Assembly: GCA_964507075.1 (NCBI GenBank) | Contig: CAZDOL010000023.1 | Coordinates: 1-5,161, forward strand | Direction: 5' to 3' | Source of the DNA: an uncultured Gammaproteobacteria bacterium | GTDB taxonomy: Bacteria > Patescibacteriota > Patescibacteriia > UBA2591 > UBA6264 | Length of the DNA: 5,161 nt | In this document: positions 1 through 4,107 of the stretch, piece after piece | Layout: each line of letters begins with the position of its first letter | How positions within the stretch are numbered: position 1 is the stretch's first letter | Position numbers and translations under genes: made by a program | The notes under the pieces: generated by a model | What the model was told of the DNA's origin: nothing | The model's database searches: none | Seen by the model: only the letters and a program-made list of their open reading frames with translations

Positions 1-925
1 TACGTTCCCAAAAATTAAAATCTTCAGTAATAATTTTTATATCTATTCCTTGTTTAGCTTTTTTAATAATTGCTTGGGAGATATTTTTGTCAGTAGCTTG
101 CCAGATAATTATTTCAATATTTTTTTGAGCGCTTTCTATTAAATCAATAATTTTTTGATTGATTGAGTTATTTTGAAATCCAGGGCTAAACCAAACATCT
201 AAGAAGCAATCATTATATGTAATATTTTTTAACCATGGCTTATAGTTTTTGTTCCGCAATTTTTTAGTTCCGTTAGTATTTTGTTTTAATAAATCAAATT
301 CAAAACCGTATGCCTGAATGATTTCAGAATCTGTGGTTACAAACAAAAAGCTGGGGTCAAAAGCTTCTTGTAGTGTGGTCCAATTTAATGAGCCAGTAAT
401 AAGTTTTTGTTGAGGCGTTCCTCTGTCTATAATAACAAATTTATGATGCATATTTGGATTTGATTTTGTAGCGCTTTTGCCTGGGTCAATTCTTTTAATA
501 TTTTCAGGCAAATCTGCAAAAACAATATTGTGTTGTTTGCTTTTATCAATATCTAAAACAAGGATTATTTGAACGCCTTTTTCATTTGCCTTATATAATT
601 TATCTCTTAATATTTCTAAGTTAAACGAATACATTGCTATTTCAATGCTTTTTTCAGCATTGTCTATGGCCTTACTAATAGTATTTATAAATTGATTAGT
701 TTGAAATTCATTATTAAAATAAACCGCGCCTTCCATATTTCTATCTACTTTAATTTTTTGAGAAGATATATAGTCAGGCAGATTTGATTCTAAAAGCCGT
801 AAAGATGTTAATTTATTAGACAAAAAAATAAGAACCATTGCAAAGCAAATAAAATAGGCGATTATCTTAATAATCTTTTTTTTATATCTTTTATATTTTC
901 TCAATTTTATCCTCAGAAATGACAT
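1..925 (-). CDS. Phospholipase D (HKD) superfamily protein with a basic N-terminus and a single membrane anchor; 3' end cut by the window edge
   Basis: Not in the supplied ORF track because it runs off the window. Hand translation of the minus strand from ATG 925..923 gives MSFLRIKLRKYKRYKKKIIKIIAYFICFAMVLIFLSNKLTSLRLLE..., open to position 1 (308 codons + 1 nt), with an in-frame TAA just upstream of the ATG. The HKD motif 'HHKFVIIDRGTPQQKLITGSLNW' is encoded at ~383..448. It is preceded by the PLD-type 'AIDNAEKSIEIAMYSFN...EKGVQIILVLD'. A second PLD-type repeat starts at ~198 and runs leftwards ('VWFSPG...IIDLIESAQKNIEIIIWQATD...GIDIKIITED'). Alternative starts are TTG 904 and ATG 838, but ATG 838 would cut the hydrophobic helix. 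Confidence 0.75.
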   Translation of the reverse strand, partial: MSFLRIKLRKYKRYKKKIIKIIAYFICFAMVLIFLSNKLTSLRLLESNLPDYISSQKIKVDRNMEGAVYFNNEFQTNQFINTISKAIDNAEKSIEIAMYSFNLEILRDKLYKANEKGVQIILVLDIDKSKQHNIVFADLPENIKRIDPGKSATKSNPNMHHKFVIIDRGTPQQKLITGSLNWTTLQEAFDPSFLFVTTDSEIIQAYGFEFDLLKQNTNGTKKLRNKNYKPWLKNITYNDCFLDVWFSPGFQNNSINQKIIDLIESAQKNIEIIIWQATDKNISQAIIKKAKQGIDIKIITEDFNFWER

Positions 926-2630
926 ATTTTTGATTATAAGTGATTAAAGAATTTTCCTTAGTGGCTAATAAAATTATTATAGAATCAGATAATTTTTCAG
1001 CCATAATTTTTAAAATTTCATTTATTCTTTTTTGGTTTAAATCAACCCACAGATTGTCAATCACAATTATAGCTGGTTTATTTACCAAGCAATAAGCTGC
1101 TTCTAATGCAAATAAATGAACTGGGTTTAATGTTATGGTTTGGCAATTCTCAGCAGTGAATTTTCTAAAAGAAAGAATGAAATGGAGCGGCGGGCATTGA
1201 GATATAACTTGAAAAACTTTTTCAATGTCTGATTGGTTGATGTTTTCTCTATTTTTGCCTGTTAATATTTCTCCAACATTTTTTTCAGAAGTTAGCTGGG
1301 GTTCTATAAAATAAGCATTACGGAATTTTGTTTGCCAATCATTATATAAATAACGTTTTTCGTTCGCTTTAACTATCCATGCCTGATTATTAAAACGTCC
1401 CATACAAGATAATAAATATCCTAAATGCGTTTTTCCAACGCAACTTTTTCCTGAAATTAAAACTCGGTCTTTAGAATTGAATTCTAAGTTGATGTTTTTG
1501 ATATATTTTCCCAACCAGAATAATTTTGTTTTTTTTGTTTTAAAAGTGATTGAAGATATTTTTTTAATTATATCTTGACGACTTTTGTCTTTTTGTGGCT
1601 CGGGCAAAGAAAGAATAAGCCCTAACCTCGCAGGCAGAATAAAGAGTCCTATTTTTAAACTGGTATAGAACAATCTTATTAAGTAAATAAAAACAATTCC
1701 AGAAATCAGCAGGTTGTCAACTTGGATTTTGAGAAAAAAGTCAGGAGTATATATTCGCATTATATAAGAAAGTCCGACTACTAAAATCAAGATACCAAAA
1801 ATAATTCTATTGCCAAAAAGAAGCCAAATTTTTCTTCTAATTCTAAAGTGCGTATCTAATTTAACTAATTCGTCTAAGGTTTGGAGATTTTCTTTTTCTA
1901 ATTTGTGTTTTTGGATAAAGGGGAGTTCATATAAAGAAGAGGTGATGTGCTTGATGATTTTGGAATAAAGTGTTGTTTCTTTTGTGACATAGTGTTTGGC
2001 AATATAGTAACCAATAAGGGCGAGTATGATATTAACGGGTATGGCTAGCAAAATAATTATTAGCAGAGTGCTGTTAATAAAAGCGCTAATAATCAGCAAA
2101 CCAAGAACATATAAAGCCCATTGCATTAAGCCAATAACGCTGTTGTCCAGCCCCATTTGCAACAAAGGAAGATGGTAGGATATTTTGGCTATTAAGCTGG
2201 CTTTATTCTCAGAAGTTACTTTGTGGAAGGGCTTATTGGTAAAAATTTTAATCCATTTCCTGCGCAAATCATTTATGAGATAGATAACTAAACTTTTCCC
2301 TATTTTAAGTTCCCAAAAGGCAATAATAATATAAATTATTACGCCTCCTATTAAAACGCAGAGGGCTATGGTCATTTGTTTCCATTGCAGAAGAACGCTT
2401 GTTTTGAATAAATGACTACGAGCAAATAAGGGCAAAATTACTTCCAGAAGAATTTGGCAAAAAAGAAGAGATAAGAAAATAATAATTTCTTTTTTGTGGC
2501 CACGAGCAAATGATTTCAAATATTTGAGATGAAATTTTTCCAATTTTAATGGTCTATTTGCTTGCCTAATCTCTGCTTTTTGTTGATACAAATAAATTTG
2601 CGATTTTTTTTCTTCCATGATGGACATCAA
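891..2630 (-). CDS. ABC type-1-exporter-like fused transmembrane domain + nucleotide-binding domain protein; the NBD is degenerate
   Basis: ORF track, 579 aa. About six hydrophobic helices lie in aa ~48-340 (e.g. IIIFLSLLFCQILLEVILPLF, MTIALCVLIGGVIIYIIIAF, VIGLMQWALYVLGLLIISAF, LLIIILLAIPVNIILALIGYYI, IIFGILILVVGLSYI, ISGIVFIYLIRLFY). There is a long cytoplasmic-loop pattern 'DLRRKWIKIFTNKPFHKV...SLIAKISYHLPLLQ', typical of ABC_membrane domains. In the C-terminal NBD, Walker A 'GKSCVGKT' (1428..1451) and a Q-loop-like 'EPQ' are present. The signature position reads 'LNPVH' rather than LSGGQ (1116..1130). Walker B reads 'IIVIDN', so the catalytic Glu is Asn (1053..1058). The H-loop position reads 'LLATKE', with no His. 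The track's first codon at 2630 is TTG; ATGs follow at 2627 and 2618, so the exact start is uncertain. Confidence 0.8.
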   Translation of the reverse strand: MMSIMEEKKSQIYLYQQKAEIRQANRPLKLEKFHLKYLKSFARGHKKEIIIFLSLLFCQILLEVILPLFARSHLFKTSVLLQWKQMTIALCVLIGGVIIYIIIAFWELKIGKSLVIYLINDLRRKWIKIFTNKPFHKVTSENKASLIAKISYHLPLLQMGLDNSVIGLMQWALYVLGLLIISAFINSTLLIIILLAIPVNIILALIGYYIAKHYVTKETTLYSKIIKHITSSLYELPFIQKHKLEKENLQTLDELVKLDTHFRIRRKIWLLFGNRIIFGILILVVGLSYIMRIYTPDFFLKIQVDNLLISGIVFIYLIRLFYTSLKIGLFILPARLGLILSLPEPQKDKSRQDIIKKISSITFKTKKTKLFWLGKYIKNINLEFNSKDRVLISGKSCVGKTHLGYLLSCMGRFNNQAWIVKANEKRYLYNDWQTKFRNAYFIEPQLTSEKNVGEILTGKNRENINQSDIEKVFQVISQCPPLHFILSFRKFTAENCQTITLNPVHLFALEAAYCLVNKPAIIVIDNLWVDLNQKRINEILKIMAEKLSDSIIILLATKENSLITYNQKYVISEDKIEKI

Positions 2631-3828
2631 GATAATATTTATATAAAGAAGGTATTTTTAAGTGTTTTAATTTTTCTTTGAGCAGGCGTTGATTGTGGGG
2701 GGAGTACTTGCCAAAAAAATATTTAGTAATAATGCGCATGAATTTTTCAGACAATTTTTTTATTTGCTGGTCATTGTTTACTAATATTTTTTGAGAAATG
2801 ATTTGGAGAAATTGGTTGTTTATATTGTCTTCTTTTTGAAAAAGTGTTTTGCGCAAGTACTTGATTTTTTGATAATTATTTCGTGGTTTATGTCCAAGCA
2901 AAGTAGTTCTCCAATAACTGATAGTTTTTTTAATGAAATTATCTTCTAAGCTGATTATTTTGTTATTAAAATTATATCCTAAAAAATTAAACTCCTGATT
3001 GGTTGCGATTAGCTTACTTTTTTCTTTTTTGATTTTTAATTTTAGTTTTTTTATCTCCTGGAGCGTGTAATGAAATAAGGCCTCTAATTTTTCTTTATTT
3101 TTATCCATTAATATTATATCATCACCAATCCTTCGGTAAAGAGACACTTTTTTTCCGAGATACTTATCTAAATCGTTGAGATATAAATTAGCGAATAAAG
3201 CTATTAAGGGAACGCCCTGCACAACGCCAATTTTGGGGCGATAAAGTTTTTCGTCTTTATATACAGCATTATAAATAAATAATTTTAAAAGTTCTATTAC
3301 TGTGTCTGGCAAGCCAATTTCTTGGAGCTTTTTAATTAATATTTTTTGGTCAATGTAGTTTGAGTAATTTGTTAAGTCCAATATTAGGGCATTGTCTTGG
3401 TCATAATAGCGTTGATATCTCCTAACAACACTGCGCCCAGCATAATAGCTGGGGTGAGAGGAGCGATACGAGAATAAAAAGGGGGAATAATTGGCTTCAA
3501 AAATTGGTTCAATGATTTGATAAATAGCTTGCGCTTTAATTCGGTCTTTGATGGTATAAATATATATATCGCGCAATGAACCGTCTTTTTTGGGAATATA
3601 GTGGCAGAGAGCAGGGCTAATTGCTTTTTTTTGCTTGAGTTCAATTTGGAGTTCTGAAATTATTTTGTCTGCTTTGTGAGCAATGTTGTCAATCTTAGAG
3701 CCATCTATGCCTGTATATCTGGAAATCCTGGCCCCTTCTTCAAATTGTTTTATCAGGGCTAAATAGGCCTTTTCTATGTTGGTGGTATTTAATATTTGAT
3801 TGTATAAGTCGTTTTTTTCAGCAGGCAT
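2566..3828 (-). CDS. Reverse transcriptase, free-standing, group-II-intron-like (RT plus thumb/X-like region only)
   Basis: ORF track, 420 aa. Motifs read from the translation: RT0-like 'YTGIDGSKI'; motif 1 'HYIPKKDGSLRDI'; motif 2 'IKDRIKAQAIYQIIEPIFE'; 2a 'FSYRSSHPSYYAGRS'; motif 3/A 'ALILDLTNYSNYID' (D151); motif 4/B 'GVVQGVPLIALFANLYLNDLD'; motif 5/C 'YRRIGDDIILM' (D236-D237 at 3118..3123); motif 6 'LKIKKEKSKL'; motif 7 'FNFLGYNF'. A ~130-aa Lys-rich C-terminal region follows, with no endonuclease or other recognisable domain. An in-frame TAA one codon upstream of ATG 3828 fixes the start. Confidence 0.9.
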   Translation of the reverse strand: MPAEKNDLYNQILNTTNIEKAYLALIKQFEEGARISRYTGIDGSKIDNIAHKADKIISELQIELKQKKAISPALCHYIPKKDGSLRDIYIYTIKDRIKAQAIYQIIEPIFEANYSPFLFSYRSSHPSYYAGRSVVRRYQRYYDQDNALILDLTNYSNYIDQKILIKKLQEIGLPDTVIELLKLFIYNAVYKDEKLYRPKIGVVQGVPLIALFANLYLNDLDKYLGKKVSLYRRIGDDIILMDKNKEKLEALFHYTLQEIKKLKLKIKKEKSKLIATNQEFNFLGYNFNNKIISLEDNFIKKTISYWRTTLLGHKPRNNYQKIKYLRKTLFQKEDNINNQFLQIISQKILVNNDQQIKKLSEKFMRIITKYFFGKYSPHNQRLLKEKLKHLKIPSLYKYYLDVHHGRKKIANLFVSTKSRD

Positions 3829-3865
3829 ATTTTAAAAAAATAAAAACCCTTTGTTTGAGGTTTTT
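3829..3865 (-). terminator. Weak terminator- or attenuator-like hairpin plus U-run immediately upstream of the RT start codon
   Basis: The minus-strand RNA reads 'aaaaacc-tcaaacaaag-ggttttt' (7 bp, only 2 G-C; plus 3842..3848 pairs with 3859..3865), followed by 'atttttttaaaat' and then ATG 3828. The layout is terminator-like, but the stem is very A-U rich. Confidence 0.25.
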
Positions 3866-3900
3866 GATATTAAAAAAAATAAAAATATTGTTTCCATAAC

Positions 3901-3926
3901 ATAGTATGTGCCAAACGGCATACTAT
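3901..3926 (-). other. Local stem-loop within the leader
   Basis: 'atagta-tg-tgcc aaac ggca tactat': tgcc/ggca (4 bp) plus atagta/tactat (6 bp), with a 2-nt bulge and a 4-nt loop. It abuts the 3' half of the long-range helix (3894..3901). This is the best-supported single structure in the spacer. Confidence 0.5.
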
Positions 3927-4049
3927 TAATTAAATCAATTTGAGACGCCCCTGGGTTGTCATTATTCTTTCGCTTATTTAAGCTGGTGTTAGACAGCAAG
4001 TTAACAAATAAGCCTCAGAATTTTTAACACCTCTATTTATGAGATAGAG

Positions 4050-4079
4050 TTGTTATGGTTTAGTAATATATGTTATAAT
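4050..4079 (+). promoter_or_regulatory. Candidate divergent promoter for the plus-strand gene
   Basis: On the plus strand: -35 'TTGTTA' (4050..4055), an 18-nt spacer, then an extended -10 'TGtTATAAT' (4071..4079). The two -10 hexamers on opposite strands overlap at 4078..4079, inside the near-palindrome TGTTATAATTATAGCA (4071..4086). Confidence 0.4.
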
Positions 4080-4107
4080 TATAGCACATATTATTGAGAA
4101 GTGTTAA
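4078..4107 (-). promoter_or_regulatory. Candidate sigma70-type promoter for the leader/RT operon
   Basis: On the minus strand: -35 'TTAACA' (4107..4102), an 18-nt spacer, then an extended -10 'TGcTATAAT' (4086..4078). Predicted TSS is ~4069..4071. Confidence 0.45.

Follow-up and report, generated by a model that had tools for sequence, protein, structure and literature searches.

Reverse transcriptases (RTs) that work together with a structured noncoding RNA (ncRNA) and an effector are known from retrons with transmembrane (TM) or nuclease effectors and from the DRT2, DRT3, DRT9, DRT10/UG17, and UG27 systems; ncRNAs have been described for UG2, UG3+UG8, UG27, and UG28 (PMC9226505) and for DRT10 (PMC12632851). 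Here, we describe a three-gene module carried on a 5,161-nt stretch of DNA from an uncultured bacterium (positions 1 to 5,161 of contig CAZDOL010000023.1, assembly GCA_964507075.1; hereafter, the window), in which genes for an RT, a protein resembling ATP-binding cassette (ABC) exporters, and a phospholipase D (PLD) family protein follow one another. Like the systems above, the module has a free-standing, intact RT with a structured ncRNA before it and effector-like genes after it. Unlike in these systems, group II intron and CRISPR-associated RTs are the closer relatives of the RT, there is no defense-island context, and the nuclease is predicted to face outward; moreover, neither an ABC exporter-like nor a PLD partner is mentioned for RT–ncRNA–effector systems in the literature searched, in which we also found no description of a module of this composition.

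ABC sites are composite, and the degenerate subunit of a heterodimeric exporter keeps a canonical signature, thereby completing the consensus site of its partner. The ABC-like protein of the module shares its fold with the heterodimeric exporters TM287/288, BmrCD, TmrAB, EfrCD, and TAP1/2 and, as they do, has noncanonical catalytic Glu, H-loop, or signature residues. However, their subunits are degenerate on one side only, the partner gene is adjacent, and one site hydrolyzes ATP, whereas the ABC-like protein is degenerate on both sides, lacks a partner gene, and is encoded in tight linkage with an RT and a nuclease. In CFTR and SUR1/2, the ABC exporter scaffold serves gating or regulation rather than pumping, and at least one site is nonhydrolytic; unlike the ABC-like protein, these are eukaryotic full transporters with one competent site, canonical signatures, and no coupling to a polymerase. 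In SbmA/BacA (SLiPT), an exporter-like dimer of transmembrane domains (TMDs) functions with no need for ATP hydrolysis, and acidic residues embedded in the membrane are important. SbmA is without any nucleotide-binding domain (NBD), whereas the ABC-like protein keeps a full, conserved NBD-like domain, and we liken the two by general fold only.

Based on the comparative analysis below, we propose, with a probability of roughly 0.55, that a nonhydrolytic, ABC-derived membrane core couples a cytoplasmic RT–RNA complex to a nuclease on the outside face of the cell. Degenerate ABC sites and RT–RNA–effector modules are each known; what is new is their union in one obligate operon, with an ATP site that is dead on both sides and a nuclease predicted to face outward.

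Results

The ABC-Like Protein Is a Full-Length Exporter Homolog

The window is AT-rich (∼30% GC) and contains three overlapping genes on the minus strand:

891..2618, minus strand: gene for the ABC-like protein, 575 aa from the ATG at 2618, with six TM helices and a degenerate NBD-like domain
2566..3828, minus strand: gene for the predicted group II intron-like RT, 420 aa (PF00078, 1.7e-20)
1..925, minus strand: 5' part (308 codons from the ATG at 925) of the gene for the predicted PLD-family nuclease, which exits the window at its left end

Neighboring genes share 53 nt (RT and ABC-like) and 35 nt (ABC-like and PLD), and the module as a whole is compact (∼4.7 kb). The open reading frame (ORF) for the ABC-like protein is open from a TTG at 2630 (891..2630, minus strand, 579 aa); because homologs begin at MEEK, the ATG at 2618 is the most likely start.

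An initial annotation, made from the sequence of the window, had read the ABC-like protein as an exporter fold that keeps Walker A and has lost the signature, the catalytic Glu, and the H-loop His, and had proposed that it is repurposed as a nucleotide-gated membrane sensor or effector rather than a transporter, in keeping with coupling to the RT. Several lines of evidence confirm the fold. A profile of the family, built from 22 homologs, has its best match among Protein Data Bank (PDB) sequences in the NBD of PCAT1 (E 2.8e-8) and also matches the TMDs of MsbA, TM288, and ABCB1. In HHalign, comparison with a profile of 15 canonical ABC exporters gives a probability of 99.93% and an E value of 3.8e-36 over 533 columns that span TMD and NBD. 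In the AlphaFold2 model (pLDDT 80.2, pTM 0.68), six long TM helices precede an NBD with pLDDT ∼85 to 93, and the Foldseek matches of this model are BmrCD, MsbA, PCAT1, TM287/288, TmrAB, and HlyB, with TM-scores ≤0.61. Altogether, the ABC-like protein is a full-length homolog of type IV ABC exporters.

General models recover this relationship poorly. The Pfam gathering scores are not reached (ABC_membrane, 18.3 bits versus 28; ABC_tran, 12.7 bits versus 25), and Pfam aligned only the Walker A stretch. Thus, the alignment to PF00664 and PF00005 suggested as a check in the initial annotation does not suffice to register the motifs, and family profiles were used for this purpose instead. NCBIfam gave only weak, sub-threshold matches to PCAT-like, LolD, FtsE, and CydD models, and the sole PADLOC match of the ABC-like protein, mad8 (E 0.008), was treated as generic P-loop similarity.

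The most conserved peptide of the family, Y[VI][TS][KRQ]E[TV]T[LFS]YS, lies in the cytoplasmic loop between TM4 and TM5 (residues 212 to 221; window about 1983-1954). It is also the only segment of the model with pLDDT <50, and it would fit an interface with a partner protein.

The ATPase Site Is Degenerate on Both Sides throughout the Family

We registered the ATPase motifs in three ways, i.e., by the family profile against PDB sequences, by profile–profile alignment, and in the AlphaFold2 model. Motif numbering refers to the 575-aa protein and family counts to 66 distinct members. The motifs are:

1428..1451, minus strand: Walker A GKSCVGKT (G390-T397), aligned to GESGSGKT of PCAT1
1116..1130, minus strand: signature remnant LNPVH (L497-H501) in place of LSGGQ, positioned by Walker B spacing and a predicted helix
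1053..1070, minus strand: Walker B IIVID-N (I517-N522), aligned to ILILD-E, with Asn at the position of the catalytic Glu
957..965, minus strand: H-loop position A552-T553-K554, aligned to AHR of PCAT1, with Thr at the site of the switch His

The profile alignments reproduce exactly the earlier registration of Walker A, the Walker B Asp-Asn pair, the D-loop, and the H-loop, and they place no canonical Glu, His, or LSGGQ in the protein. The substitutions are moreover shared by its orthologs. Walker B Asp is present in all 66 members and is followed by Asn in 64 and by Ala in two, but never by Glu. Directly after Walker B, the D-loop region reads LWVDLN, in which W524 and D526 are specific to the family (62/66 each). 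The H-loop residue varies widely (Thr 18, Arg 15, Ser 6, Lys 6, Asn 5, Gly 4, and His 4 of 66), the Q-loop Gln position is Glu in the window protein and Asp in 36, Glu in 13, and Gln in five members, and the A-loop aromatic position aligns to Leu. Walker A is largely kept, with Lys in 60 members (Arg in five, Ser in one) and with Thr/Ser and the second Gly in 63 each; P0014 and P0015 are without GK[TS].

At the signature, the loss of GGQ is clear in any register, while the exact alignment is split: Both profile methods place LSGGQ on I-T-L-N-P by means of a two-residue indel, whereas the register LNPVH, as originally annotated, is favored by the ungapped distance of 24 residues from L497 to D521, the same as in PCAT1, and by a predicted helix that starts at P499 with N/S498 as N-cap. 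In this region, only position 498, with Asn in 44 members and Ser in 20, and a following Phe are conserved.

Thus, of the catalytic elements of the ATPase, only the P-loop and the Walker B Asp are left. With the signature, the usual ATP-sandwich dimer is lost as well, and, from these substitutions, we infer that the ABC-like protein cannot run the cycle of ATP-sandwich formation, hydrolysis, and reset. Because degeneracy affects the signature side as well as that of Walker B and the H-loop, a canonical partner could restore no consensus site. In agreement with the initial annotation, the window holds no second half-transporter gene. In the window's own longer contigs, no gene for an ABC membrane protein was called within ∼6 kb on the upstream side of the RT or ∼10 kb on its downstream side, and comparison of more than 45 loci revealed no conserved exporter gene in the neighborhood of the module. 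ABC genes that do occur near other loci are not conserved and comprise a canonical exporter (L013, 2.8 kb away), an ABC2 pair (L016), and MacAB-type sets (six loci). In four assemblies, the complete cassette of RT, ABC-like, and PLD genes occurs twice, in divergent copies (L033/L034, L038/L052, L022/L045, and L042/L054).

The NBD-Like Domain Is under Selection in a Small, Distinct Clade

Twenty residues are invariant in all 66 members. New, family-specific invariant features are E59 inside TM1, E450, and the motif D521-N522-x-W524-x-D526; R119, K145, Y148, D255, R259, R262, and R315 are invariant in the cytoplasmic extensions, as is K363 in the first strand of the NBD, and Q55, also inside TM1, is near-invariant. 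Mean identity to the window protein is 0.42 in the NBD-like domain and 0.45 in the TMD. The NBD-like domain is therefore as well conserved as the TMD, which argues that it has been selected and remodeled and is not a decaying relic; despite its degenerate motifs, it is under strong purifying selection.

The family forms a small clade set apart from other ABC proteins. An exhaustive profile search of 1.84 billion representatives returned ∼90 clusters (at 50% identity) with E≤1e-30, and below these, scores fall sharply to ordinary ABC proteins near 50 bits. Three distant relatives with 18 to 24% identity (P0239, P0231, and P0218) have neither Walker A nor the Walker B Asp. The Walker B region of P0242 is DNxW-like, yet this protein passes Pfam as an ordinary ABC protein and was not counted as a member; its gene has no PLD gene downstream, and the contig breaks off upstream of it.

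The Three Genes Form a Conserved Operon

In all 45 species-representative loci, the RT, ABC-like, and PLD genes stand in this order, on one strand, and with overlapping frames. The same order with overlaps is found in all metagenomic loci and persists down to 18% identity, with one distant exception (L066). An overlapping RT gene lies upstream of the ABC-like gene in every locus in which the upstream side is present, which bears out the coupling to the RT put forward in the initial annotation. That interpretation was nevertheless incomplete, as it missed both the PLD nuclease downstream and the structured RNA upstream of the RT; these two are obligate or near-obligate partners that shape any mechanism.

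The hosts, as labeled, are mostly Patescibacteria (Falkowbacteria, Magasanikbacteria, and Parcubacteria), and some are labeled "uncultured Gammaproteobacteria" or Omnitrophota. The genes flanking the module vary between loci and include those for ribonucleotide reductase, enolase/gyrB, glycosyltransferases, and DNA ligase.

The distant relatives without Walker A are informative. P0239 (L063) lies within a triad of RT, ABC-like, and PLD genes; P0218 (L064) is followed by a PLD gene, with the upstream side cut; and P0231 (L066, GCA_020632335.1, 4794-8090) follows an RT, with a gene for a 150-aa DUF2975 membrane protein replacing that for PLD. Because these relatives stay linked to an RT, the module as a whole does not depend on nucleotide binding, and because DUF2975 takes the place of PLD in L066, the RT and the ABC-like protein are the core pair and the third gene is exchangeable.

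A Structured RNA Precedes the RT

An ORF-free gap lies upstream of the RT in every locus (median, ∼300 nt); in the window, it is the 299-nt spacer between the RT gene and a divergent ORF on the plus strand. It contains:

3948..4059, minus strand: core of a structured RNA in the RT leader, from iterative nhmmer searches, RNAalifold, minimum free energy folds, and a covariance model
4078..4107, minus strand: promoter-like site TTAACA-18 nt-TG-TATAAT, matching at 11/12 positions (a consensus match only)

Iterative nhmmer searches and independent minimum free energy folds of 20 sequences give an architecture of a short P1 hairpin, a strand of 6 to 7 nt, and a long P2-P3-P4 hairpin, the apical loop of which is complementary to the strand directly 5' of the hairpin (the loop–flank helix). 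In the MAFFT alignment, 92.7% of cells are paired, compared to 28 to 44% in slid controls, and 16 of the 18 pairs have compensatory changes. A covariance model built without the loop–flank helix finds 40 copies in 36 of 52 loci, all upstream of the RT and on its strand, and no match elsewhere in 628 kb. On the alignment to this model, the loop–flank helix shows, over 39 sequences, 99.6% pairing and covariation at each of its six pairs, while P3 is poorly aligned (60% paired). RNAalifold on the raw MAFFT alignment gave the loop–flank helix only, and the other helices come from the single-sequence folds and the covariance-model alignment. The whole leader (window 3829-4107) folds with z = −3.25. 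The promoter-like site (4107..4078 in the direction of transcription) is the best in the region, and transcription from it would start ∼10 nt before the conserved RNA. P4 and the loop–flank helix cannot easily coexist, and the RNA may therefore act as a switch, make an intermolecular contact, or position a primer.

The element matches no Rfam family at E≤1, and neither Rfam at this threshold nor ARAGORN returned anything relevant for a transfer-messenger RNA or another known ncRNA family. In four loci, two tandem copies precede a single RT gene: L022 (936-1034 and 1242-1340), L030 (4150-4247 and 4454-4553), L025 (4333-4436 and 4636-4756), and L049 (4443-4549 and 4631-4732). In L014, the element (5377-5484) lies ∼1.3 kb upstream of the RT, and the two minus-strand ORFs between them (278 and 79 aa), which have no Pfam match on record, are possibly an insertion.

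The RT Is Group II Intron-Like with Conserved Catalytic Residues

Among PDB sequences, the RT best matches group II intron RTs and Cas6-RT-Cas1, and these matches extend into the N-terminal RT0 region. The group II model TIGR04416 scores 148 bits, below its cutoff of 300, and the generic RT model 136.5 bits; the PADLOC matches are weak (RT_UG26, 99.6 bits; RT_UG17, 88.6 bits). The catalytic residues D151, G235-D236-D237, and K270 are invariant in 115 relatives, of which 114 keep the steric-gate Tyr (Y155). Judged from its sequence, the RT is thus catalytically intact and group II intron-like. Motif C (window 3120-3137) reads RR[VI]GDD rather than YxDD, with GDD as in viral RNA-dependent RNA polymerases, and several relatives carry a precomputed Pfam RdRP_1 match.

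Despite these matches to group II intron RTs/maturases, the module is without intron RNA and is not an insertion: No intron ribozyme family is found in the window (Rfam, E≤1), and the three genes form a fixed operon. By analogy to the binding of DIVa by an intron-encoded protein, the RT could bind the hairpin near its own start codon. A diversity-generating retroelement was also discarded, as the RT is not of this type and there is no pair of template and variable repeats, only short AT-rich chance repeats.

The Downstream Protein Is a Predicted Outward-Facing Nuclease

The part of the PLD gene inside the window encodes a K/R-rich N terminus, one TM helix, and the first HKD domain (HHKFVIID). 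Full-length relatives, an example of which is the copy at L001 9280-10857, have two PLDc_2 domains (E 7.5e-37). The closest solved relatives of both domains are the single-HKD nucleases Zucchini/MitoPLD, NucT, and Nuc; Zucchini is also anchored by an N-terminal TM helix. The module protein differs from these in that it has two domains in one chain, an invariant second motif HxHx4D, and a translational link to the ABC-like gene. HxKx4D in the first domain and HxHx4D, with Lys replaced by His, in the second are each present in 50/50 relatives. The protein is thus predicted to be a PLD superfamily nuclease of the Nuc/Zucchini type.

All 51 relatives examined (51/51) have a single N-terminal TM segment, no other, and a K/R-rich N terminus before it, which in most of them is the more positively charged side. 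By the positive-inside rule, the protein is therefore predicted to be N-in/C-out, with its catalytic part outside the cell.

Discussion

The module described here would have four parts, i.e., a structured RNA, an RT, an ABC-like membrane core, and a PLD nuclease. In the mechanism that we favor, the NBD-derived domain would serve as a docking or sensing domain for the RT–RNA complex or for its nucleotide or cDNA product and, in the subfamily of the window protein, may still bind a phosphate-bearing ligand via the P-loop. The dimeric exporter-fold TMD would then connect what happens in the cytoplasm to the cell exterior, the predicted site of the PLD nuclease, either as a gated conduit or by a conformational relay.

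Some observations weigh against this proposal or its possible roles. Asn at the position of the catalytic base lowers hydrolysis but need not abolish it; the RNA could be merely a cis-regulatory leader; and the outward topology of the PLD protein is predicted from the positive-inside rule only. In addition, the 133 nearest neighbors show no defense-island signature and only generic ATPase, helicase, and metallo-beta-lactamase (MBL) matches, and the module is absent from the viral contigs of IMG/VR, where the failure to find a relative also led us to reject a phage-borne origin.

The model of the initial annotation, in which a nucleoside triphosphate is bound unhydrolyzed and gates an RT-triggered, membrane-damaging or signaling state, is in line with the strict coupling to the RT and with the retention of the Walker A Lys and Thr/Ser in most members and of the Mg-coordinating Walker B Asp in all 66, even though the residues for hydrolysis are lost. 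However, a canonical ATP-induced NBD sandwich is unlikely in a protein that has lost the signature and has Leu at the A-loop position, P0014 and P0015 are without GK[TS], five members have Arg for Lys, and the distant relatives dispense with both Walker A and the Walker B Asp while remaining linked to an RT. Thus, nucleotide gating may apply to the subfamily of the window protein with its conserved P-loop but is not general to the clade, and as an account of the module, we consider it possible but somewhat unlikely. The accompanying claim that the protein acts "rather than" as a transporter does not follow from the loss of the ATPase because an exporter-fold TMD, such as that of SbmA/BacA, can conduct without ATP. 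The TMD could accordingly still be a conduit, powered by the proton-motive force or by RT polymerization, that carries cDNA, RNA, incoming DNA, or a substrate of another kind from the cytoplasm to the exofacial PLD protein or in the reverse direction. Besides this precedent, the invariant E59 and the near-invariant Q55 inside TM1, the many invariant Arg/Lys residues of the cytoplasmic extensions and of the first strand of the NBD-like domain, the Nuc/NucT/Zucchini-like, predicted outward nuclease, and the genes for pilins, PilB/PilT, MshQ-like LamG proteins, and ComM that recur nearby in several sub-lineages are all consistent with such a conduit. By contrast, RT-coupled translocation is without precedent, a pore wide enough for nucleic acid is without structural support, the PLD protein is swapped for an unrelated small membrane protein in L066, and type IV pilus genes are common in Patescibacteria, so that their adjacency may reflect chance or mere synteny within lineages; we therefore regard this alternative as quite unlikely. 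In its most specific form, an RNA-templated or RNA-primed RT would make or capture nucleic acid that passes through the ATPase-dead channel in either direction and is processed by PLD at the cell surface, with polymerization or the proton-motive force as the energy source. This translocon is a long shot; if true, it would be a new route of nucleic-acid export or import for the ultra-small, nucleotide-auxotrophic Patescibacteria.

The two remaining alternatives fit the data less well than the nonhydrolytic coupling that we favor. An ATP-driven transporter, which would either form a heterodimer with a half-transporter encoded elsewhere or use noncanonical catalytic residues, with the RT adjacent by hitchhiking, could appeal to the frequency of heterodimeric exporters with one degenerate site, to the presence of TM287/288, BmrCD, and TmrAB among the best structural matches, and to the canonical exporter gene near L013. 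Yet no half-transporter is conserved near the module, the composite site is degenerate on both halves and would form no consensus site with a canonical partner, genomes with two copies hold two full degenerate cassettes, each with its own RT and PLD genes, and the persistence of overlapping frames with the RT and PLD genes to 18% identity argues against hitchhiking; we judge this alternative very improbable. That the NBD-like domain is a decaying relic, or the gene a pseudogene, might be suspected from Pfam scores below the gathering thresholds. This idea is refuted by the conservation data, with an intact ORF in more than 60 loci, the invariant residues, an NBD-like domain conserved like the TMD, and confident modeling of this domain, and we give it practically no credence.

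As to the biological role, we tentatively favor RT-based defense or abortive infection, an assignment that falls a little short of even odds. With neither defense islands nor relatives in IMG/VR, it rests mainly on analogy to RT–RNA–effector systems; were it correct, both the RT lineage and the RNA would be new to defense, as would the effector logic with its exofacial nuclease. Envelope-associated nucleic-acid trafficking, i.e., uptake or export, is an unlikely role, given the lack of precedent and the possible synteny of the pilus and competence genes noted above, but it would amount to a new kind of translocon, and the conduit, if real, would be categorically new.

Degenerate ABC sites are usually explained by a partner that is catalytically competent; the clade described here has, as a whole, abandoned the hydrolytic cycle on either side of the composite site and is instead bound to an RT by gene overlap. 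The module also links RT–RNA machines to ABC membrane scaffolds, a connection that we did not find in the literature searched, and it does so in Patescibacteria, the surface and nucleic-acid biology of which is poorly understood. From members that retain Walker A to those that have lost it, the clade is a natural series for asking what an NBD does after hydrolysis stops, and the module is compact enough that it could be reconstituted in a heterologous host.

Neighboring Genes and Divergent ORF

Among the neighbors that recur across loci are genes for cupredoxin-like proteins, extracytoplasmic function (ECF) sigma factors, MacAB, pilins, PilB/PilT-type ATPases, and MBL-fold proteins. In the window's own contigs, they include an MshQ-like LamG protein, ComM, and an AbiEii pair. 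This AbiEii/DUF6922 toxin–antitoxin pair lies a few kb from the module (L001 3883-4786; L004 150-1026), and an AbiEii gene is also found near L014 (17320-17728); AbiEii genes are the sole defense-type neighbors beyond generic ATPase, helicase, and MBL similarities.

The ORF on the plus strand that diverges from the RT (4128..>5159; 423 aa in L001) encodes an N-terminally membrane-anchored product unrelated to the module. It has no Pfam match on record and is kept only in close relatives. Its promoter-like site and the one before the RT leader overlap in a 20-nt palindrome (4064-4093). Finally, L003 differs from L001 and L002, with which its RT is 100% identical, by a small GIY-YIG gene (L003 5941-6204) inserted between the PLD gene and the large LamG/DUF2341 (MshQ-like) gene.

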